Source: Betaproteobacteria bacterium
Lineage (GTDB): Bacteria > Pseudomonadota > Gammaproteobacteria > Burkholderiales > SG8-41
Assembly (NCBI GenBank): GCA_016192825.1
Contig: JACPTK010000004.1
Span: 2,905-66,904, forward strand
Length of the DNA stretch: 64,000 bases
Reading direction: 5' to 3'
The stretch's first letter is position 1, and each line of letters begins with the position of its first letter. Below, one piece after another: positions 27,245-48,698 of this stretch. The position numbers were made by a program, and so were the translations under genes. The notes under the pieces are model-generated. The model was not told where the DNA came from and searched no databases. It saw nothing but the letters and a program-made list of their open reading frames with translations.

Positions 27245-27275
27245 GGTAATGGGTAATGGGTAATGAGTAATGAGC
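27245..27275 (+). repeat. Heptamer array GGTAATG x3, AGTAATG, AGCATCA (left arm of an inverted pair)
   Basis: Read directly. The reverse-complement array lies at 27663-27690. Confidence 0.92.
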
Positions 27276-27287
27276 ATCAAAACCCGG

Positions 27288-27665
27288 TTAGGACCGGACT
27301 GCCTTGTGAAGCCCCGTTACCAATCTGGAGACTTGATTTACAACATTGAAAATTGGATCGTTGCTATTGATGTAGCCCAGATCACTGGCGATAAGCAACT
27401 GTGTCTCCAGTTCGCTCAGCGAGCCTCGTGCCACGTTCAAGAACTGAGCGAACTCCCTGTTTCCTGTGCGCGCGGCACCCTCTGCAATATTGCTGGGAAT
27501 TGAGACTGCGGCGCGACGCATCTGCGAGACCAATCCAAACATCTCTTCCCTGGGAAATTTCTGTGTTAGTAAATAGACGTCCTTGACCAAAGCTCTGGAT
27601 ACCTTCCAGGCCTCCAGCTTGTGGTGGCCCCTTCCAGCACTTTCTGGTTGTCGTTCAGCGCCCAT
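27288..27665 (-). CDS. Four-helix-bundle protein (23S rRNA intervening-sequence protein / S23p family, Avd-like)
   Basis: About 125 aa. Family signature: ..KLEAWK..L....Y.LT..FP..E.FGL.SQMRRAAVSIPSNIAEG..R....EF.QFL..A.GSL.ELETQL. G+C is visibly lower than in the neighbouring genes. The gene is bracketed by inverted heptamer arrays. Confidence 0.9.
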   Translation of the reverse strand: MGAERQPESAGRGHHKLEAWKVSRALVKDVYLLTQKFPREEMFGLVSQMRRAAVSIPSNIAEGAARTGNREFAQFLNVARGSLSELETQLLIASDLGYINSNDPIFNVVNQVSRLVTGLHKAVRS

Positions 27666-27690
27666 CACTCATTACCCATTACTCATTACC
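27663..27690 (+). repeat. Heptamer array CATCACT, CATTACC, CATTACT, CATTACC (right arm, reverse complement of GGTAATG)
   Basis: Read directly. It contains the start of the four-helix-bundle gene and the last codons plus the stop of E1alpha. Confidence 0.92.
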
Positions 27691-28743
27691 CAGTGCAGCG
27701 GCCCGCTGGCGCGCGAGTGCTGCGGGCAACTGCGCGTAGAGATGGTCGAACATCTGCGCTGCGGCCGGAGGCGGCGTGTCGAGGTAGGCCTGCGCCGCGG
27801 CCTGCACCTGCGCGTTGCATTCCCTGAGCAGCGCGTCCTCCTTCGACTTGTCCCAGGCGCCGGATTCCATGAGGTGGGCGCGCAGCCGCACAAGGGGCTC
27901 GAGCTTCCATGCTTCCGCCAACTCGTCCGGGCTGCGGTAGCGCGAGGCGTCGTCGGCCGTGGTGTGGTCGGCGAGCCGGTAGGCAAGGGCCTCGATCAGC
28001 GTGGGGCCGCCGCCGGCGCGGGCTTTCGCGAGCGCCTGCTCCATGGCGTGGCGCACGGCGATGACATCGTTGCCGTCCACCTGCAGGCCTTCGATGCCGG
28101 CGGCGATGGCCTTCTGGGCGAGCGTGTGCGCCGCGGTCTGCTTCGCCCGCGGCACCGAGATCGCCCACTGATTGTTGGCGACGACGAAGACGAGGGGCAG
28201 CTTCCAGACGCCGGCGGCATTGAGACCCTCGTAGAAATCGCCCTTGGAGGTTGCGCCGTCGCCCAGCGCGCACACCGCCACGCGCGGCTCCCGCCGCAGC
28301 TTCATGGCGTAGGCGACTCCGACCGCGTGTGTTGCGTGCGCGGCGATGGTGATGCAAACAGGGAAGTCCCGGCGAGGGCCGGCATAATCGCTTCCGCGTT
28401 CGTCCCCGCCCCAATAGAGAAACAGCTCCTTGAGCGTCACGCCGCGCATCAGCTGCGCGCCGTTCTCGCGGTAGGTCACGAGCAGGACATCGTCCCTCGC
28501 CATCGCGGAACCGACCCCGGCTTCGATCGCCTCGTTGCCGAGCATCGAGGCGAAAGTACCGAGCTGTCCGGTGCGCTGCAGCGCGATCGCCTTGGCGTCA
28601 TAGGCGCGCATCAGCGCCATCCAGCGGTAGAGGGAGACGAGTATCCGGGGATCATGCGCGAAGCCCGGCAGGGCCTGCAGCGCCTTGCCGTGGGGATCGA
28701 GGAACTGTAAGTACCGGACCTCGAATTTGGCGGTGATATTCAA
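27679..28743 (-). CDS. 2-oxoacid dehydrogenase E1 component alpha subunit (TPP-dependent)
   Basis: 354 aa with a TPP motif region (GDGATSKGDFYEGLNAAGVWKLPLVFVVANNQWAIS). The C-terminal ..GNE-stop is encoded by the heptamer array. Confidence 0.9.
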   Translation of the reverse strand: MNITAKFEVRYLQFLDPHGKALQALPGFAHDPRILVSLYRWMALMRAYDAKAIALQRTGQLGTFASMLGNEAIEAGVGSAMARDDVLLVTYRENGAQLMRGVTLKELFLYWGGDERGSDYAGPRRDFPVCITIAAHATHAVGVAYAMKLRREPRVAVCALGDGATSKGDFYEGLNAAGVWKLPLVFVVANNQWAISVPRAKQTAAHTLAQKAIAAGIEGLQVDGNDVIAVRHAMEQALAKARAGGGPTLIEALAYRLADHTTADDASRYRSPDELAEAWKLEPLVRLRAHLMESGAWDKSKEDALLRECNAQVQAAAQAYLDTPPPAAAQMFDHLYAQLPAALARQRAAALGNE

Positions 28744-33420: not shown

Positions 33421-34863
33421 TCAGACCACGAACCGGTCCACGAATTCATTGACGGGCGTCGCTTCCAGGCGCTGCTGGTCATGGCACAGGGACAGTATCG
33501 CCTGCTGCTGCTTGGGCGCGAAACGCCGCGCGAGATGGGTGCGGAACTTGGCTTCGAGCAGCGGCACGCCTTCCTTGCGACGGCGGCGGTGGCCGACGGG
33601 GTATTCGACGGCGACCGGGTCCGTCTTCGAGCCGTCGTTGAAGAATATCTGCACAGCGTTGGCGATCGAGCGCTTGGCCGGGTCCATATAGTCCCGGCTC
33701 CAGCGCTTGTTTTCCACGCACACCATCCGCGGCCGCAACCGGTCGATTCGGGGATCGGCCGCCGCGCCATCCTCGTAATCGGAGGCCGCGAGCGTGCCCT
33801 TCATGAGCCCGATGGCGACCATGTACTGCAGGCAGTGGTCGCGGTCCGCCGGGTTGTGAAGGGGGCCCTTCTTGTCGATGATGCGGATGGCGGATTCGTG
33901 GGTCGTGATGACGATTTTCTTCACCGCATCGAGGCGGTCACGGACTTGCGGGTGCAGCTGGATCGCGGCTTCGACGGCGGTCTGGGCGTGAAACTCGGCG
34001 GGAAAGGAAATCTTGAACAGCACATTTTCCATGACGTAGGAGCCGAACGGCCGCTTGAAGCGGAACGGCCTGCCCCCGAACAGCACGTCGTAGAAGCCCC
34101 AGGTCTTCGCGGTAAGGGCGGAGGGGTAGCCCATCTCGCCCTTCAACGCGAACAGCGCCAGCCGGACCGCGCGGCTGGTGGCATCGCCCGCCGCCCACGA
34201 TTTGCGCGACCCGGTGTTGGGCGCGTGGCGGTAGGCGCGCAGGGACTGCCCGTCGATCCACGCGTTGGAGACCGCGTTGACGATTTCCTCGCGGGTGCCG
34301 CCCATCATGTGGGTGACGACGGCGGCGGAGGCGACCTTGACCAGCACCACGTGATCCAGCCCGACGCGGTTGAAGCTGTTTTCGAGCGCGATCACGCCCT
34401 GGATTTCGTGCGCCTTGATCATCGCGGTGAGCACGTCGCGCATCACCGGCGGCTTCGCGCCCCGGGAGAGGCGCGTGCGCGCCAGCCAGTCGGCGGTGGC
34501 AAGGATGCCACCCAGGTTGTCGGACGGATGGCCCCACTCGGCGGCGAGCCAGGCGTCGTTGAAATCGAGCCAGCGGACCATCGTGCCGAGGTTGAAGGCC
34601 GCCGTCACGGGGTCGAGCTGGTACGGCGTGCCCGGCACCTTCGCGCCGTCGGGCACCACGGTGCCCGCGACGATGGGACCGAGCAGCTTGGTGCACGCCG
34701 GGTACTCAAGCGCTTCCAGCCCGCAGCCCAGCGTGTCCATCAGGCACAGCCGCGCCGTGTTGTAGGCTTCATCGCTCTTGATCGGGAATCCGGCGACGTA
34801 CTCGGCGATGTCCGTCAGAACTTTATCTGGTTTCGGACGGGTATTGGAGATGCGGGAGCTCAT
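33421..34863 (-). CDS. prpD: 2-methylcitrate dehydratase
   Basis: 480 aa with the MmgE/PrpD family pattern ([11 protein letters not shown].., [13 protein letters not shown]) and adjacency to prpC. Confidence 0.9.
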
Positions 34864-34884
34864 GTGCCTCGAAACGCGCGGCTA

Positions 34885-34956
34885 GCGGATCGCGACTCGC
34901 GGATGGTGACAGCTTGCTTGATTGGCCCGGTCACGAGCCGCGATCCGCGAGTCACT
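34885..34956. repeat. Inverted pair of GC-rich heptamer arrays (GCGGATC GCGACTC GCGGATG GTGACAG ... GGTCACG AGCCGCG ATCCGCG AGTCACT)
   Basis: Left arm 34885-34912 and right arm 34929-34956. GACTCGCGGAT pairs with ATCCGCGAGTC. The right arm overlaps the prpC stop. Confidence 0.75.
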
Positions 34957-39901: not shown

Positions 39902-40008
39902 GTGAATCGTGATTGGTGATTAGTGAGCGGACCAAACCGAAGAGCGACGCATGATGGACTTCCGTCTTCCCGCTTGTCACCAATCACTAAACACCACTCA
40001 CTAATCAC
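39902..40008. repeat. Inverted pair of heptamer arrays in the sdhA|sdhB spacer (GTGAATC GTGATTG GTGATTA GTGAGCG ... TTGTCAC CAATCAC TAAACAC CACTCAC TAATCAC)
   Basis: Left arm 39902-39929 and right arm 39974-40008. There is a 12-nt perfect complement: GTGATTAGTGAG (39916-39927) with CTCACTAATCAC (39997-40008). Confidence 0.9.
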
Positions 40009-40026: not shown

Positions 40027-40722
40027 ATGAGATTCTCGATCTACCGCTACAACCCCGAGGCCGACGAGAAGCCGCGCCTGCAGAGCTACGATATCGCGCT
40101 CGAGCCGACCGACCGCATGCTGCTCGACGCGCTGGTGCGCATCAAGGCGCGCGACGACACGCTGTCGTTCCGGCGCTCCTGCCGCGAGGGCGTGTGCGGG
40201 TCGGACGCCATGAACATCAACGGCAAGAACGGGCTCGCGTGCGTCACGCGGATCGCCGACCTGAAGGAGCCGGTGGAGATCCGGCCGCTGCCGGGGCTGC
40301 CGGTGGTGCGCGACCTGATCGTGGACATGTCGCAGTTCTTCAAGCAGTACCACTCGGTCAAGCCCTATCTCGTCAACAACGAGCCGCCGCCCGAGAAGGA
40401 GCGGCTGCAGTCCCCGGAGGATCGCGAGGAGCTGGATGGCCTTTATGAATGCATCCTGTGCGCCTGCTGCTCGACCTCCTGCCCGTCGTTCTGGTGGAAC
40501 CCGGACAAGTTCGTCGGTCCGGCCGGCCTGCTGCAGGCGTACCGCTTCATCGCCGACACGCGCGACCAGGCCACCAACGAGCGGCTGGACGATCTGGAAG
40601 ATCCGTACCGCCTGTTCCGTTGCCACTCCATCATGAACTGCGTGGAGGTGTGCCCGAAAGGGCTCAACCCGACGCGGGCGATCGGCAAGATCAAGGATCT
40701 GCTGGTCAAGCGCACCGTCTAG
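40027..40722 (+). CDS. sdhB: Succinate dehydrogenase iron-sulfur subunit
   Basis: 231 aa with three Cys clusters ([39 protein letters not shown]). Confidence 0.97.
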
Positions 40723-40753
40723 GAATTCGTCGGTGCCCTGGCTCGACGAATTT
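40723..40753 (+). other. Hairpin directly after the sdhB stop (possible attenuator/terminator)
   Basis: Stem GAATTCGTCG / CGACGAATT(T) of 9-10 bp with an 11-nt loop; only a short T tail follows. Confidence 0.35.
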
Positions 40754-40842
40754 CATATTGGGCTAATTTGAAATCGGCAATATGGCGTGGTTGCTGCAGA
40801 TGATGGAATTCAGTAGCAGTGCCGAAATGCCGTTATATGCAA

Positions 40843-40874
40843 GGAATTTGCCGGACGATAGGCCGGCAAATTCC
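40843..40874. repeat. REP-like hairpin GGAATTTGCCGG-N8-CCGGCAAATTCC
   Basis: 12-bp perfect stem. A related copy (GGAGTTTGCCGG..CCGACAAACTCC) lies at 48414-48445. Confidence 0.6.
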
Positions 40875-40886
40875 TAGTTCGAGCGA

Positions 40887-41117
40887 ATGCGAGAACTGGA
40901 CCGCATCCGCTGGCGCTGCCGGCGCGGGTTGCTCGAGCTCGATCTCTTGCTCAGCGGATTTCTGGAGCGCCGTTTCGACCGGCTCGACGCGGCTGAGCGG
41001 CAGGCGTTCACGGAGCTGCTCGACCAGCCCGACAACGACCTGCTGGACCTGGTGCTGGGACGGTGCGAGCCGGCGCCGCGCTACCGGGCGGTGGTGGAGA
41101 TGCTGCGGGCGGGGTGA
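40887..41117 (+). CDS. sdhE: FAD assembly factor SdhE (Sdh5/YgfY family)
   Basis: 76 aa with the family motif WRCRRG.LELDLLL and a position between sdhB and gltA. Confidence 0.8.
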
Positions 41118-41188
41118 GGCAGTCCCGGACGCGCAGGGCGTGGGAGCGGCGCAAGCCGCGTGATGGATGGAAAACTGGGGAGACCAAC

Positions 41189-42487
41189 ATGGCAGAGAAA
41201 CTGGCAACCCTGAGCTTCAGTGACGGCACGCCGTCGGTCGATTTCCCCGTGCTGGGCGGCAGCGAAGGCCCGGAAGTGATCGACGTGCGGGCACTCTACG
41301 GCAAGACCGGCAAGTTCACCTACGACCCCGGCTTCATGTCCACGGCCAGCTGCCGCTCCACCATCACCTATATCGACGGCGACAAGGGGATACTGCAATA
41401 CCGCGGCTACCCGATCGAGCAGATCGCCGAGCATTGCACGTTCCTCGAGGTGGCCTACCTGATCCTCAACGGCGAGCTGCCGAACAAGAAGCAGCTCGAG
41501 GAATTCGTGACTACCGTCACCCACCACACCATGGTGCACGAGCAGCTCGGGCGCTTTTACTCGGGTTTCCGGCGCGACGCGCACCCGATGGCGGTGCTGT
41601 GCGGGGTGGTGGGCGCCCTGTCCGCCTTCTACCACGACTCGATCGATATTCACGACGAGCGCAGCCGGGAGATCGCGGCGTTCCGGCTGATCGCGAAGCT
41701 GCCGACCATCACGGCGATGACCTACAAATACAGCGCCGGACAGCCGTTCATGTACCCGAAGAACGCGCTGTCCTACGTGGACAACTTCCTCTACATGATG
41801 TTCGGCACGCCGTGCGAGGAGTACAAGCCCAACCGGACCCTGTCGCGGGCGATGGACCGCATCCTGATCCTTCACGCCGACCACGAGCAGAACGCGTCGA
41901 CCTCCACGGTGCGGCTCGCCGGCTCGACCGGCGCCAACCCGTTCGCGTGCATCTCCGCCGGCATCGCGAGCCTGTGGGGCCCGGCCCACGGCGGCGCCAA
42001 CGAGGCGGTGCTCAAGATGCTCGGCGAAATCGGCGACGTGAAGAACATTCCCGCGTTCATCAAGCGCGTCAAGGACAAGGACGGCCACGCCATGCTGATG
42101 GGCTTCGGCCACCGCGTCTACAAGAACTACGACCCGCGCGCCAAGCTCATCCAGAAGACCTGCCACGAGGTGCTGGAGGAGCTCGACCTCAAGGACGACA
42201 AGCTGTTCAAGCTCGCGATCGCGCTGGAGAAGGTGGCGCTCGAGGACGAGTACTTCGTCAAGCGCAAGCTCTATCCCAACGTGGATTTCTATTCCGGCAT
42301 CGTCTACAAGGCGCTCGGCATTCCGGTCGCGATGTTCACCGCGATATTCGCGCTCGCCCGCACGGTGGGTTGGATCGCCCAGTGGAAGGAGCTGATCAGC
42401 GACCCGGATCAGAAGATCGGGCGCCCGCGGCAGCTCTTCACGGGCGCGGCGCGCCGCGACTTCGTGCCCATGAACAAGCGAAAGTGA
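41189..42487 (+). CDS. gltA: Citrate synthase (type II, hexameric type)
   Basis: 432 aa from ATG 41189 ([13 protein letters not shown]..). Motifs: [30 protein letters not shown]. The track ORF starts earlier, at 41063. Confidence 0.95.
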
Positions 42488-42571
42488 TTCGTGAGTCGTG
42501 AATCGTGATTCGAGGGCGTATCGTGTGCGGACCATAGCGGGCCGAATCACGAATCACCCATCACGATTCAC
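42484..42571. repeat. Inverted pair of heptamer arrays in the gltA|sucA spacer (GTGATTC GTGAGTC GTGAATC GTGATTC ... GAATCAC GAATCAC CCATCAC GATTCAC)
   Basis: Left arm 42484-42511, whose first unit contains the gltA TGA. Right arm 42544-42571. The centre is 32 nt. Confidence 0.92.
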
Positions 42572-42596
42572 GCTCTTGGGTTTCTGAGGCGCAGCC

Positions 42597-45449
42597 ATGA
42601 TGAAGCAGATGCTCGGCAGCTCCCATCTCTTCGGCGCGAACGCGCCGTTCATCGAGGCGCTCTACGACGCCTGGCTCAGGGACCCGGCCTCGGTCGAGCC
42701 GCGCTGGCGCGATTACTTCGAGGAATTGCAGCGTCTCGACCAGGGCGCCGCGGATGTGTCGCACTACGAGGTCCAGGAGCGCTTCGCGCAGCTCGCCCGG
42801 GCGCCGCGCGCGGGCGCGCCGACGGTCGTGATCAACCGCCCGCAGCTCGGCGAGAAGCAATACGCCGTGCTCCATCTCATCACGGCCCATCGCATCCTGG
42901 GCAGCCGCCACGCCGACATCGATCCCCTCCGGCGCCGCGAAAAGCCGGACATTCCCGAGCTCGACCCCGCATTCTACGGGCTGAGCGATGCAGACATGGA
43001 GGCGGCGTTCAACACCGGGACGCTGGTCGGGCCGCGGGAGATGAAGCTCAGCGACATCCTGCAGTTCCTCAAGGACACCTATTGCCGCAGCGTCGGCGTC
43101 GAATACATGCACGTCACCGACATGGCGCAGAAGCGATGGGTGCAGGAGCGTCTGGAGCGCACCCGCTCGACGCCTTCCTACGACGCCGAGTACCGCAAGC
43201 ACATCCTGGAGCGGCTGACCGCCGCCGAGACGCTGGAAAAATACCTGCACACCAAATACGTCGGCCAGAAGCGCTTCTCGCTGGAGGGCGGCGAGTCCCT
43301 GATTCCGCAGCTCGACCACCTGCTGCAGAGCGCGGGGAAAGCGGGCGTGCAGGAACTGGTGATCGGCATGGCCCACCGCGGCCGCATCAACGTCCTCGTC
43401 AATACCCTGGGCAAGATGCCCAAGGATCTTTTCGCGGAGTTCGAAGGCAAGCACGATGACTCGCTGCTTGCCGGCGACGTCAAGTACCACCAGGGCTTCT
43501 CCGCCAACATCATGTCGCCGGGCGGGCCGATGCACGTCTCCCTGGCGTTCAACCCCTCGCACCTCGAGATCGTCAACCCGGTGGTCGAGGGCTCGGTGCG
43601 CGCGCGCCAGCACCGCCGGCGGGATCTAAGGGGCGACCAGGTCCTGCCGGTGCTCATCCACGGCGATGCCGCGTTCGCGGGGCAAGGCGTGAACATGGAA
43701 ACCTTCGAGCTGGCGCAGACGCGCGGCTACGGCACCAGCGGCACGCTGCACCTGGTGGTGAACAACCAGATCGGCTTCACCTGCTCCGACCTGCGCGACG
43801 CCCGCTCGACGCTCTACTGCACCGACATCGCCAAGATGCTCGAAGTGCCGATCTTTCACGTGAACGCCGACGATCCGGAAGCGGTGTGCCTGGTGACGGA
43901 GATCGCGCTGGAATACCGCATGAAGTTCCACAAGGACGTGGTGGTGGACCTGGTGTGCTACCGGCGCCTCGGGCACAACGAGCAGGACGAGCCGATGGTC
44001 ACCCAGCCGCTGATGTACAAGACCATCGCCCGGCTCCCCACCACGCGCAAGCTGTACGCCGACAGGCTCGAGCGCGAAGGCGCGATCCAGCCGGGCGGGG
44101 GCGACGCCATGGTCGTGAACTTCCGCGCCGCGCTCGATGGCGGGCACCACACCAACAAGACCATCCTGTCCAACTACAAGCCCCCGTTCGAGGTCGACTG
44201 GGGCAAGTACCGGGGCGGCAAGTGGAACGAGCACGACGACACGCGGCTCCCGATCGAGACGCTGAAGCGGCTGGGGGAGCGCATCACCACCGTGCCCGAG
44301 AACTTCAAGCTGCATTCCTCGGTGCAGCGGATCATCGAGAACCGGCGCCTGATGGCGCAGGGCAAGCTCCCGCTCGACTGGGGCATGGCCGAGCATCTGG
44401 CCTTCGCCACGCTGCTCGAGGAGGGCTACTCGGTCCGGCTCTCGGGCCAGGACAGCGGGCGCGGAACCTTCTTTCACCGCCATGCCGTGCTGCACGACCA
44501 GAACCGGGAGAAATGGGACCAGGGCACCTACGTTCCGCTGCAGCACCTGAGCGACAAGCAGGGCGATTTCGTGGTGATCGATTCGGTGCTGTCCGAGGAG
44601 GCCGTGATGGGCTTCGAGTTCGGCTACTCGACCTCGGCGCCCAACGAGCTGGTGATCTGGGAAGGACAATTCGGCGATTTCGCGAACGGCGCCCAGGTGG
44701 TCATCGACCAGTTCATCGCCTCGGGCGAGGCCAAGTGGGGCCGGCTGTGCGGGCTGGTGCTGATGCTGCCCCACGGCTACGAGGGGCAGGGGCCGGAGCA
44801 CTCGTCCGCCCGCATCGAGCGCTACATGCAGTTGTGCGCCGACTACAACATGCAGGTCTGCGTCCCGGCAACCCCGGTGCAGCTCTATTACCTGCTGCGG
44901 CGGCAGATGATCCGGCCGTACCGCAAGCCGCTCATCCTGTTCACGCCGAAGAGCCTGCTGCGCCACAAGGAATCGGTCTCGCCGCTGGAGGAATTCGCCA
45001 CCGACAAGTTCAAGCCGGTGAACGAGGACTGGGAATCCAAGGACATCAATCCCGACGCAGTGAAGCGCGTCGTCTTCTGCAGCGGCAAGGTCTATTACGA
45101 TCTGCGCGTCGAACGCAAGGCGCGCGGCCTGAAGGACCTGCCGCTCGCGCGCATCGCGCAGCTCTACCCGTTCGCGCACGACGACTTCCATGCGCAGATC
45201 GAGCGCTACAAAACGGCGAGCGAGATCGTGTGGTGCCAGGAGGAGCCGCGCAACCAGGGCGCGTGGCACCGCATCCAGCACTACCTGGAGCGCCACCTGC
45301 TGCCGCACCAGAAACTGATCTACGCCGGCCGCGACTCCTCGGCCGCGCCGGCCGCGGGGTACAAGTCGCTGCACGACCGTCAGCAGAAGGAGCTCGTGGA
45401 TCTTGCGCTGTCCGTGGGTGTCGTCTCGCGCGCCGACGGGGTGCGGTGA
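42597..45449 (+). CDS. sucA: 2-oxoglutarate dehydrogenase E1 component
   Basis: 950 aa with characteristic blocks (RILGSRHADIDPL, GMAHRGRINVL, HGDAAFAGQGV, LPHGYEGQGPEHSSAR). Confidence 0.97.
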   Translation: MMKQMLGSSHLFGANAPFIEALYDAWLRDPASVEPRWRDYFEELQRLDQGAADVSHYEVQERFAQLARAPRAGAPTVVINRPQLGEKQYAVLHLITAHRILGSRHADIDPLRRREKPDIPELDPAFYGLSDADMEAAFNTGTLVGPREMKLSDILQFLKDTYCRSVGVEYMHVTDMAQKRWVQERLERTRSTPSYDAEYRKHILERLTAAETLEKYLHTKYVGQKRFSLEGGESLIPQLDHLLQSAGKAGVQELVIGMAHRGRINVLVNTLGKMPKDLFAEFEGKHDDSLLAGDVKYHQGFSANIMSPGGPMHVSLAFNPSHLEIVNPVVEGSVRARQHRRRDLRGDQVLPVLIHGDAAFAGQGVNMETFELAQTRGYGTSGTLHLVVNNQIGFTCSDLRDARSTLYCTDIAKMLEVPIFHVNADDPEAVCLVTEIALEYRMKFHKDVVVDLVCYRRLGHNEQDEPMVTQPLMYKTIARLPTTRKLYADRLEREGAIQPGGGDAMVVNFRAALDGGHHTNKTILSNYKPPFEVDWGKYRGGKWNEHDDTRLPIETLKRLGERITTVPENFKLHSSVQRIIENRRLMAQGKLPLDWGMAEHLAFATLLEEGYSVRLSGQDSGRGTFFHRHAVLHDQNREKWDQGTYVPLQHLSDKQGDFVVIDSVLSEEAVMGFEFGYSTSAPNELVIWEGQFGDFANGAQVVIDQFIASGEAKWGRLCGLVLMLPHGYEGQGPEHSSARIERYMQLCADYNMQVCVPATPVQLYYLLRRQMIRPYRKPLILFTPKSLLRHKESVSPLEEFATDKFKPVNEDWESKDINPDAVKRVVFCSGKVYYDLRVERKARGLKDLPLARIAQLYPFAHDDFHAQIERYKTASEIVWCQEEPRNQGAWHRIQHYLERHLLPHQKLIYAGRDSSAAPAAGYKSLHDRQQKELVDLALSVGVVSRADGVR

Positions 45450-45483
45450 GCGGCAATTCGCAGCCGCCGCTGCGAATTGCCGC
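45450..45483 (+). other. 15-bp perfect hairpin immediately after the sucA stop
   Basis: GCGGCAATTCGCAGC-CGCC-GCTGCGAATTGCCGC, followed by an A/T-rich sequence but no clean T-run. Confidence 0.5.
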
Positions 45484-45609
45484 TAATTGAAATTCTGAAA
45501 TGGATATAGGTGAGGTTGGCTGCGGGAACGTTTCCCGTCCTAGAATGAGGTGTCCAGGCGAGTTGGAAATGAACGTTGCACTGCCCCATTCAATCATGTT
45601 CTCTAGGTT

Positions 45610-45643
45610 AGGATTTTTTCGCGCGCCAGCGCGAAAAAATCCT
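45610..45643 (+). promoter_or_regulatory. 14-bp hairpin abutting the sucB Shine-Dalgarno
   Basis: AGGATTTTTTCGCG-N6-CGCGAAAAAATCCT. Its right arm ends 1 nt before GGAG (45644-45647). Confidence 0.4.
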
Positions 45644-45657
45644 GGAGCGGAGTGAGC

Positions 45658-46989: not shown

Positions 46990-48414
46990 ATGGCCAAATT
47001 ATTTGATGTCGTCGTGATCGGCGCCGGTCCGGGCGGCTACATCGCCGCGATCCGCGCCGCCCAGCTGGGGCTGGCAACGGCGTGCATCGACGAATGGAAA
47101 ACCGCCGACGGCAAGCCGGCGCCGGGCGGCACCTGCACCAACGTCGGCTGCATACCGTCGAAAGCCCTGTTGCAGTCCTCGGAGAATTATCATCATGCTG
47201 CACACGCATTCTCGGATCACGGCATACAGATCAAGGGCCTGGCCCTTGATCTGGCGCAGATGCTCAGGCGCAAGGACAAAGTCGTCAGGCAGAACAACGA
47301 GGGCATCCTGTTCCTGTTCAAGAAGAACAAGGTCGCGTTCTACCACGGCCGCGGCAGTTTCGCCGGCGGCAAGGCCGGGGCGTGGGACATCAAGGTCGCC
47401 GGCAAGCCGGATGAAACGCTGAGCGCGAAGCACGTTATCGTCGCCACCGGCTCCACTCCGCGCGCCCTGCCCGGCGCCGCTTTCGACGACAAGCTCATCC
47501 TCGACAACGACGGTGCGCTTGCGATACCGGAAGTGCCGAAGCGGCTGGGCGTGATCGGCGCGGGCGTGATCGGTCTCGAGATGGGCAGCGTGTGGCGGCG
47601 GCTCGGCGCCGAGGTCGTCATCCTGGAGGCGCTGCCGGCGTTTCTCGGGGCGGCGGACGAGCAGGTCGCGCGCGAAGCCCTCAAGATCTTCACAAAGCAG
47701 GGACTCGGCATCCACACCGGCGTGAAGGTCGGCAAGGTGACGACGGGCAGGGATGTGAGGGTCGAATACGCCGATGGCGTGGGCAAGGCGCAGACGCTGA
47801 CGGTGGACAAGCTCATCGTCTCCATCGGCCGCATGCCCAACACGGAGGGGCTCAATGCGGGGGCGGTCGGGCTCAAGGTGGACGAGCGCGGCTTCATCGC
47901 GGTGGACGACGAATGCCGCACGAACCTGCCCAACGTGTGGGCTGTGGGCGACGTGGTGCGCGGGCCGATGCTCGCGCACAAGGCGGAAGAGGAGGGCGTG
48001 GCCGTCGCCGAGCACATCGCGGGCAAGCACGGCCACGTCGATTTCAACACGATCCCGTGGGTGATCTATACCTCGCCGGAGATCGCCTGGGTGGGGAAGA
48101 CCGAGCAGCAGCTCCGGAGCGAGGGGGTGCGCTACAAGGCTGGCCAGTTTCCGTTCATGGCCAACGGCCGCGCCCGCGCGCTCGGCGACACCGCGGGCTT
48201 CGTGAAATTCCTGGCCGACGAGAAGACCGACCGCATCCTGGGCGTGCACATCATCGGGCCGATGGCCTCCGAAACGATCGCCGAGGCGGTGGTGGCGATG
48301 GAGTTCCGCGCCTCGGCCGAGGACATCGCGCTGATCTGCCACGCCCATCCGTCGCTCTCCGAGGCGATGAAGGAGGCTGCGCTGGCGGTCGCTCAGCGCA
48401 GCCTGAATGTCTAG
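46990..48414 (+). CDS. lpdA: Dihydrolipoyl dehydrogenase (E3)
   Basis: 474 aa from ATG 46990. Motifs: [23 protein letters not shown], redox-active [14 protein letters not shown]-terminal HAHPSLSE. Confidence 0.95.
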
Positions 48415-48445
48415 GAGTTTGCCGGACTTGGGGCCGACAAACTCC
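48414..48445. repeat. REP-like hairpin GGAGTTTGCCGG-N8-CCGACAAACTCC, overlapping the last base of the lpdA stop
   Basis: 12-bp stem with one mismatch. Same family as 40843-40874. Confidence 0.6.
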
Positions 48446-48452
48446 TAAATGC

Positions 48453-48577
48453 AAATCCGCCTGCGCAAAAACGAATGAAAAGGCAGTGAAAACCTTATGT
48501 TCAGCCTGCTCGCGTGCCCGTTGGAGGCCAAGAAGGGTCGTCATCCCGTATTTCATTCGAAATGCGCAGGCGGTTTT
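48453..48577. repeat. Long-range inverted repeat (about 27-nt arms) enclosing about 70 nt
   Basis: The left arm AAATCCGCCTGCGCAAAAACGAATGAAA pairs with the right arm TTTCATTCGAAATGCGCAGGCGGTTTT. The match is 11 + 9 nt perfect segments separated by a small bubble. Confidence 0.6.
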
Positions 48578-48584
48578 GCTGTGA

Positions 48585-48618
48585 GCAGCCTGTCGGAATG
48601 CCAAGTCCGACGGGCTGC
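48585..48618. repeat. REP-like hairpin GCAGCCTGTCGG-AATGCCAAGT-CCGACGGGCTGC (family with 52064 and 62663)
   Basis: 12-bp stem with one mismatch. It shares stem and loop sequence with the two other copies. Confidence 0.7.
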
Positions 48619-48698
48619 CAGGAACCGTTCAACGGACCGTGTTTCCGGGTAGCCGTTGCCAATCCTGCTTTCATTCAGGCCGGCTCCAGGAATGGTGA

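Follow-up and report, generated by a model that had tools for sequence, protein, structure and literature searches.

The spacer between gltA and sucA in the Betaproteobacteria bacterium assembly GCA_016192825.1 (Burkholderiales, SG8-41) lies within a stretch of 64,000 nucleotides (nt) of contig JACPTK010000004.1 (positions 2,905 to 66,904, forward strand), hereafter the window, and contains an inverted pair of tandem heptamer arrays. We consider it probable, with some reserve, that this spacer is a gene-less ('solo') copy of a family of hairpin inserts, processed or stabilised at the RNA level and carried as a tolerated insertion. The modules of this family are polar, reading 5'-AAAnGC-(GTGANTN)~4-GAC, and two of them always face each other with the G-rich strand 5', enclosing a loop specific to each copy. 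The gltA/sucA element, an ordinary member of the family, starts precisely at the AAG-TGA with which gltA natively ends and keeps the ribosome-binding site of sucA clear. Its parts and flanking genes, as located by annotation, direct reading, Tandem Repeats Finder (TRF) and an inverted-repeat search, are as follows.

41063 to 42487, plus strand: gltA, type I citrate synthase (NCBIfam NF004126, 760 bits)
42484 to 42511, plus strand: left (G-rich) arm, GTGATTC GTGAGTC GTGAATC GTGATTC (direct reading, TRF, inverted-repeat search)
42512 to 42543, no strand: centre (loop) of 32 nt, GAGGGCGTATCGTGTGCGGACCATAGCGGGCC, unique and unstructured
42544 to 42571, plus strand: right (C-rich) arm, GAATCAC GAATCAC CCATCAC GATTCAC (direct reading, TRF, inverted-repeat search)
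42572 to 42596, plus strand: tail of 25 nt, GCTCTTGGGTTTCTGAGGCGCAGCC, with the sucA ATG next at 42597
42597 to 45449, plus strand: sucA, 2-oxoglutarate dehydrogenase E1 (NCBIfam NF006914, 1335 bits)

The letters agree with the first-pass annotation, which had described four GTGANNN units facing four NNNTCAC units over a 32-nt centre; its statements that the gltA TGA lies inside unit 1 and that the right arm ends 25 nt before the sucA ATG can likewise be read off directly. The open frame of gltA runs from 41063, with a likely start near 41192, to the TGA at 42485-42487, and ends AAG CGA AAG TGA, encoding a C-terminus (..KRK*) that, together with the AAGTGA ending, is common to congeners. Beyond providing the gltA stop, the left arm supplies TGA in all three frames, and on the minus strand the right arm reads as four consecutive GTGANNN units. 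Both arrays are detected by TRF; the repeat search returned arms of 29 nt, 83% complementary and separated by 30 nt, and by our own count 23 of 28 positions form Watson-Crick pairs in register. The window has 15 strings of the form (GTGANNN)3GTGA, whereas 100 shuffles give an expectation of 0.00. The GCTCTT of the tail fits the outer clamp GCnTTT of the family, the left end being native gltA sequence, and further along the tail the Shine-Dalgarno (SD) motif of sucA, GAGG at 42586-42589, is unpaired in the predicted fold; the sucA start, ATGATGAAG, is kept in congeners. No target-site duplication accompanies the element, its flanks AAGCGAAA and GCTCTTGG not forming a direct repeat. Elsewhere in the genome, the right arm has a twin with one mismatch (contig C98, 77231-77312: GAATCAC GAATCAC CCATCAC GAATCAC), whose centre is unrelated and whose first unit also gives the stop of a minus-strand gene (..LKKP*).

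The genome of the window (G000; 5.1 Mb, 65% G+C, a draft of 123 contigs) holds 1513 period-7 arrays as defined by TRF, with a mode of four units, and a strict regular expression for arrays of (GTGANNN)>=3 finds 253 on the plus strand and 251 on the minus strand. Counted at distances of 5-140 nt, 100 pairs are convergent (GTGA..TCAC), none is divergent (TCAC..GTGA) and 8 + 11 are direct. Run lengths peak sharply at four units (two, 395; three, 142; four, 284; five, 51), four units being present in 62% and 61% of the paired arms, and the centres are mostly 20-50 nt long. Other unit families (AGTGCTG, AGGATTG, GGGATAA, AAGGGAA and others) obey the same polarity rule, and a G-rich left arm is joined to a C-rich right arm in 99 of the 111 short pairs defined by TRF.

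Placement relative to genes is equally regular. At the 77 GTGA pairs that could be classified by junction, the flanking genes are co-directional in 65, convergent in 11 and divergent in 1, against a background of 74, 13 and 13%. In 52 genes the TGA of unit 1 serves as the stop codon (offset -1), with that of unit 2 doing so in 15 and that of unit 3 in 7, so the stop-in-unit-1 arrangement seen at gltA is generic and recurrent in this genome. Offsets of +6 to +9 are found in 67 genes, and the majority of the post-stop arrays that do not contain the stop begin 3-6 nt past it. Across 792 non-coding period-7 arrays, stop triplets are found on the G-rich strand in 69% (47% expected) and on the C-rich strand in 3.8% (15% expected). 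Genes of the '-1' class have a coding AAAnGC clamp, which yields endings such as ..K-A-stop. As a separate observation, at 26 paired elements (52 arrays genome-wide) the upstream open reading frame (ORF) crosses an AAAGGC clamp and ends on the first GTGA, gaining a C-terminal ..K-A or ..K-G tail (e.g., C108:1412, C93:111770 and C14:27255); these inserts appear to have replaced the native stop codons.

The recurring motifs of the family sit at the ends of the arms, not in the loop. On the G-rich strand, the positions before an array favour A (.58) A (.69) A (.57) n G (.68) C (.79) and those after it G (.96) A (.64) C (.41), often as GGACY; with AAAnGC before the arrays and GCnTTT after them, the palindrome therefore extends to AAAnGC...GCnTTT, and this outer clamp is present alike at post-stop and pre-start ends. 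The frequency of AA.GC is 33% among paired arms and 16% among lone arrays, compared with 1% in non-coding controls that have an isolated GTGA. The units themselves are variable: per three variable positions, they differ at 1.79 between elements and at about 1.4 across the two arms of one element, and the values are lower inside an arm, 0.96 for adjacent units and 0.86 for units i and i+2. This pattern argues that the arms of an element share a unit family and are homogenised locally, with neither a process that makes an exact stem nor selection for one. The 284 four-unit arms comprise 237 distinct sequences, with a mild excess of identical pairs (78 versus 54 +/- 5), figures that are not decisive on the idea that arms are copies of a few master arrays. 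Mimicry of Shine-Dalgarno sequences by G-rich arms, or of the 16S tail by C-rich arms, was rejected, duplexes with the anti-SD being no better (-7.4 kcal/mol) than those of shuffled arms (-8.5 kcal/mol).

The first-pass annotation had called the gltA/sucA pair 'empty', an apt word given that gene-filled versions exist in the same genome. PF05635 (S23p, the rRNA intervening-sequence protein) is encoded at seven loci, in eight matched segments, one locus being frameshifted and one containing a stop, and all seven lie between convergent arrays of the same chirality, each with its own unit type and one with a period of 8. The gltA/sucA arms (28-29 nt, 83% complementary) correspond to the ~28-bp stem of an S23p-type intervening sequence (IVS), but the 32-nt loop holds no S23p ORF, another feature of such sequences. 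Across 25 congeners, S23p copy number rises with the number of GTGANTN arrays (rho 0.63, relatedness ignored), and the coefficient reaches 0.78 when 16 other genomes of the order are added; related genomes are not independent, so these correlations are indications rather than tests. Congeners that lack S23p (G001, G003, G005 and G011) have 0-9 arrays, and their gltA/sucA spacers are 4-45 nt long. One filled copy lies in the window itself: its S23p gene (27318-27620, minus strand) sits within an insert at 27245-27692, between GGTAATG and CATTACC arrays, that splits the E1alpha and E1beta genes, which in G003 are separated by ATCACTCATCACC only.

The gltA-sucA junction, compared across 19 species of the genus and 15 further genomes of the order, shows turnover. 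Among congeners, spacer lengths are -4, 4, 4, 12, 22, 22, 45, 79, 89, 92, 94, 96, 106, 109 (G000), 116, 127 and 169 nt and, twice, about 350 nt; the junction on contig C282 of G020 (locus L018) is a run of N. At least five different repeat types occupy these spacers, including the following.

G006 and G023: TTGAGTG/CTCAAAA pairs
G008: a GTGAnTn array, partly decayed
G014 and G004: degenerate pairs
G009 and G019: inverted arrays of the 9-mer AAGGACAC
G017: arrays of the 14-mer CAGTCACGTnnnnn
G007: a one-unit palindrome, GTGAGGCG..CGCCTCAC
G003: a one-unit palindrome, GTGAGCTTCAC

In a tree of gltA and sucA, G000 is sister to G016, with a 12-nt spacer, and then to G003, with 22 nt; since the closest species have such short spacers, the gltA/sucA copy is specific to its lineage. 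It may have been gained in the lineage of G000 or lost in both of these species; G003 carries one-unit traces at three sites, which deletion of a palindrome would fit too. With the insert removed, the G000 junction reads AAGTGA|GCT.., the same as in G003. The surrounding junctions compare as follows, in each case with the spacer in G003 before that in G000.

E1alpha/E1beta: 0 nt; 439 nt, S23p cassette
sdhA/sdhB: 10 nt; 125 nt, heptamer pair
gltA/sucA: about 21-22 nt; about 108-109 nt, heptamer pair (the element studied)
sucA/sucB: 0 nt; 198 nt, a different hairpin insert
sucB/lpdA: 7 nt; 112 nt, heptamer pair

This synteny and the hypervariable lengths argue that the spacer is neither a conserved terminator nor a conserved promoter, the conventional alternative that the first-pass annotation had proposed checking in relatives. 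As judged from these comparisons, the gltA/sucA spacer is instead a hotspot for inserts of this kind. No contig from the same species was found among metagenome contigs by exact-pattern and protein-guided scans, the best gltA match being 82%.

At the RNA level, the element has a predicted fold of -52 kcal/mol (z -3.3), and the spacer matches no Rfam family at a permissive threshold. A promoter and terminator scan of the spacer returned no promoter-like and no canonical terminator-like site, although the terminator scan is blind to stems with large loops and its silence is not decisive. Since no such site is seen and the two genes are coupled in relatives, the element is probably transcribed within a gltA-sucAB mRNA. 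That message would carry an insert that folds into an imperfect stem of ~28 bp and, by analogy with known intervening sequences, the stem would fold the insert out of the message, which would explain how such inserts are tolerated inside the operons of single enzymes. The stem could then be cut by RNase III, whose gene, rnc, is present in the genome, parting gltA from sucAB transcripts; alternatively, it could persist as a 3' barrier that stabilises the gltA segment, in the manner of repetitive extragenic palindromic (REP) elements. These analogies draw on the 28-bp stem of the heptamer-bearing IVS of Coxiella, which RNase III cuts, and on the well-known E. coli site, 5' of sucA in the sdhCDAB-sucABCD transcript, at which RNase III acts (PMC5371410). 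A third precedent is the association of transcript starts and stops with heptamer repeats in Xanthomonas (PMC4692102). Sister species lack the element, and inserts of this sort stand between subunits of a single enzyme; for these reasons a selfish or neutral insertion that the host tolerates is the most likely view, ahead of a conserved regulator.

Several points weigh against this interpretation of the spacer as an RNA-processed or stabilised solo copy. Co-transcription, in vivo folding and cleavage are each an inference. Pairing in the stem is imperfect, with 23 of 28 positions paired in register and a longest perfect run of 13 bp in a slipped register, and mirrored units are no better paired than non-mirrored units of the same element (1.417 versus 1.388 mismatches per three variable positions, permutation p = 0.999). 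No difference separates post-stop from pre-start arms, a point against a strong function specific to the mRNA sense, and the lack of conservation among species is a point against an important host function. Hairpin formation alone also does not account for the strict chirality of the family. Register-specific covariation, as would be the signature of a selected stem or of fold-back copying, was sought as a separate candidate and rejected, being absent from the mirrored-unit comparison.

The first-pass annotation had further suggested that the centres might share a core, on the grounds that the 8-mer GCGGACCA occurs both here (42527-42534) and in the centre of the sdhA/sdhB element. The sharing is real, though the second copy lies at 39927-39934 and not at 39928-39935, and with its flanks the match extends to 12 of 14 positions, GTG[A/T]GCGGACCA[A/T]A; G008, moreover, has GCGGACC at the inner edge of its own gltA/sucA array. 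A MITE-like mobile element (MITE, miniature inverted-repeat transposable element) with a conserved core common to the sdhA/sdhB element is nevertheless highly improbable. The 8-mer is present in just 2 of the 102 centres tested, and it is also the best Smith-Waterman match of the gltA/sucA centre against 149 other centres, a score that 99.5% of shuffles equal or exceed. The genome-wide comparison of centres, proposed in advance as a test of the core, thus finds no significant similarity between them, and the idea falls by its own standard. Nor are the centres multicopy: non-self genomic matches at >=34 bits (blastn) number 27, against 39 for random segments, and the exact gltA/sucA centre is absent from the metagenome contigs scanned. 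The only sub-families seen, in other copies, are CTCCCGCG..CGCGGGAG hairpins and CCCTCTCCCC..GGGGAGAGGG repeats. By the same method a true MITE-like family, a 213-nt element with at least 90 copies at ~94% identity, was found in this genome; a core-bearing copy-paste family is therefore easily seen here, and the heptamer pairs are not of that kind. Identity with a MITE was accordingly rejected, the internal sequence being unique and the flanks not a direct repeat. What had been noticed in the sdhA/sdhB copy is probably the GGACY pentamer of the inner boundary, whose occurrence in the gltA/sucA copy, 15 nt inside the centre, may be coincidental. The gltA/sucA centre has no structure of its own (fold z = +1.3 and +1.1), and the possibility that it represents the ancestral spacer or an earlier hairpin was rejected, as it is unstructured and gives no alignment with the spacer of G003 or of G016.

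How the arrays arise is a further question, and a purely mutational origin would require neither a dedicated mechanism nor an RNA role: replication slippage would have expanded two seeds, a GTGAnnn at the gltA stop and a complementary one before sucA. The native gltA end is AAGTGA in 8-9 congeners, one-unit versions exist in G007 (GTGAGGCG..CGCCTCAC) and G003 (GTGAGCTTCAC), units are closer within an arm than across arms (0.96 versus 1.4 mismatches), as local duplication predicts, and the likeness of units i and i+2 (0.86) suggests 14-nt duplications. An excess of heptanucleotide repeats in bacteria is also known and unexplained (Mrazek 2007, in the summary given in PMC4679880). We still hold such a by-product to be unlikely, since slippage alone gives no account of 100 convergent versus 0 divergent pairs or of the four-unit peak, of the outer and inner boundary motifs at both types of end, of a unique centre of ~32 nt that, too, has no counterpart in G003 or G016, or of the link to S23p genes across the genome. 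Plain slippage is made less likely by strict chirality, quantised length, boundary motifs and unique loops; these features are compatible, speculatively, with a directed polar process. A dedicated process, polar and length-measured, that is tied to S23p (Avd-like four-helix-bundle) genes could place the modules in lieu of slippage; this is a tentative proposal to which we give only a modest chance. One possible route may be the templated addition of G-rich heptamers to the 3' ends flanking a break or an inserted fragment, which would yield the G-rich-5' chirality, the four-unit quantum, the AAAnGC/GAC motifs and a unique filler loop. If so, 'empty' pairs would be the footprints of a new self-propagating hairpin element that settles at the stops of tightly packed operons and is made harmless at the RNA level, either folding out or being cleaved by RNase III.

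Two other functions for the finished pair also have to be weighed against RNA processing or stabilisation, and both seem to us distinctly improbable. As a weak bidirectional intrinsic terminator or attenuator, the element would tune read-through from gltA into sucAB through a long stem set between an A-tract and a short U-tract (AAAnGC..stem..GCnUUU). The family consensus does place an A-run 5' and a T-run 3' of the GC clamp, a T-run ends the centre in 17 of 150 cases, the large-loop stem would be invisible to the scan mentioned above, and passages of Rehm et al. (PMC4692102) report transcripts ending at, or within 30 nt of, heptamer repeats. The gltA/sucA copy, however, lacks the left clamp, where the sequence is coding, and its tail GCUCUUGGGUUUCUG is a poor U-tract; nor does it have the compact stem, small loop and U-tract of >=5/8 of an intrinsic terminator, its loop being 32 nt and its tail GCUCUUGG. 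Convergent gene ends show no enrichment of the family (14% versus 13% background), copies lie inside single-enzyme operons (sdhA/sdhB, sucB/lpdA), where termination would be harmful, and no promoter-like site precedes sucA; weak attenuation by the stem may nonetheless occur. As a DNA-level array of four 7-bp protein-binding sites per arm, with the toroidal pentameric S23p as a candidate binder, the element would instead act on chromosome structure, replication or repair. This would suit the quantised arm length, the strict two-strand symmetry free of sense/antisense asymmetry and the co-occurrence of S23p genes with arrays, S23p being a four-helix-bundle homopentamer (PMC4990558). Yet there is no evidence for DNA binding by S23p, the element-specific unit variants (237 different sequences in 284 four-unit arms) are hard to fit to one sequence-specific binder, and the family avoids divergent promoter regions and hugs the ends of transcribed genes.

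Other inserts are found in the window. The 213-nt element, of a MITE-like family, lies downstream of lpdA at 48411-48624 between two hairpins, the 3' hairpin starting with CAGCCTGTCGGAATGCCAAGTCCGAC.. from 48586; its genomic copies, at least 90 of them near full length, are ~94% identical, and G003 lacks it, with 63 nt downstream of lpdA versus 357. AT-rich inserts of ~180-200 nt with perfect terminal hairpins, e.g. CGGCAATTCGCAGC..GCTGCGAATTGCCG and AGGATTTTTTCGCGCG..CGCGAAAAAATCCT, occupy 45451-45648 (sucA/sucB) and 40721-40896 (after sdhB) and have a GCTAATT(T)GAAAT stretch in common; G003 has 0 and 27 nt at these places, and the 3' hairpin of the insert after sdhB has ~20 genomic relatives. 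At 34863-34947, an 85-nt GC-rich pair of GCGGATC/GATCCGC-type units, ending GGTGAC..GGTCAC, adjoins the GTGA stop of a minus-strand gene and is missing in G007, which has 1 nt there.

In many bacterial genomes no long simple repeat is, to our knowledge, more over-represented than heptamers, and we know of no accepted explanation; the only mechanistic idea that we know to be in print is that four units make a G-quadruplex. Here, the preference for four units, the convergent pairing and the placement at stops are all kept with a unit that cannot form a quadruplex, so the explanation must lie elsewhere, and chirality, boundary motifs, unique loops and co-variation with S23p provide testable constraints on how such elements arise. 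The sdh-gltA-suc-lpd operons can evidently absorb several 100-nt hairpin inserts at junctions that measure 0-22 nt in a sister species. This bears on operon annotation, ORF callers extending N-termini through the C-rich arms, and on the buffering of insertions by mRNA structure.

Of the systems already known, REP elements are extragenic palindromes between co-directional or convergent genes, transcribed as stem-loops that stabilise the upstream segment; they repeat a single consensus palindrome headed by GTAG (GT[AG]G) and are mobilised by RAYT transposases. The elements described here resemble REP sequences and bacterial interspersed mosaic elements (BIMEs) by being extragenic palindromes within operons, between co-directional or convergent genes, and differ in that their arms are tandem arrays of variable units. 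A closer structural parallel is offered by the ORF-bearing 23S rRNA IVS of Coxiella burnetii (Warrier et al. 2016, PMC4990558), which has terminal inverted repeats forming a 28-bp (4 x 7) stem, a number of tandem heptamers that varies between strains, and a loop that holds the S23p gene, and whose stem is cut by both Coxiella and E. coli RNase III. The seven filled pairs of this genome likewise hold an S23p gene in the loop, and the ~28-bp heptamer stem is shared; the gltA/sucA copy, unlike the Coxiella IVS, lies in an mRNA spacer, is gene-less with a 32-nt loop and has a less perfect stem, whose cleavage is putative. TAACTGA heptamers, found in Beggiatoaceae and cyanobacteria as intergenic arrays of 2-6 units (MacGregor 2015, PMC4679880), place stops in three frames in the forward orientation, some overlapping the stop of the upstream gene, and are nearly always single direct arrays just before starts, with one inverted pair reported. 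Intergenic heptamers, three-frame stops and overlap with an upstream stop are thus shared with the TAACTGA repeats (and the cyanobacterial short tandemly repeated repetitive sequences, STRR), whereas convergent pairs and variable units set the present family apart from arrays that use one unit sequence.

The nearest relatives by arrangement are the GGGAATC heptamers of Xanthomonas and the GGGGAYT heptamers of Nostoc, for which passages of Rehm et al. (2015, PMC4692102) describe 70-75 pairs per genome, always convergent. According to the same passages, these pairs lie at or overlap stops on the sense strand and, on the antisense strand, stand upstream of starts; they are depleted between divergent genes and, in Xanthomonas, coincide with the starts and stops of assembled transcripts more than control repeats do. 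The modal four units, the always-convergent pairs, the stop placement and the rarity between divergent genes described there all recur here. GTGANTN, by contrast, has no G-tract (G-runs reach 2 at most, short of the GGG tracts of those repeats), so no G-quadruplex is possible, and still the four-unit peak persists. The passages of Rehm et al. retrieved by the corresponding terms contain nothing on AAAnGC/GAC motifs, a three-frame TGA or a link to S23p. Ultimately, the heptamer convergent-pair class is known, and what appears new is a unit without a G-tract that comes with boundary motifs and a link to S23p.

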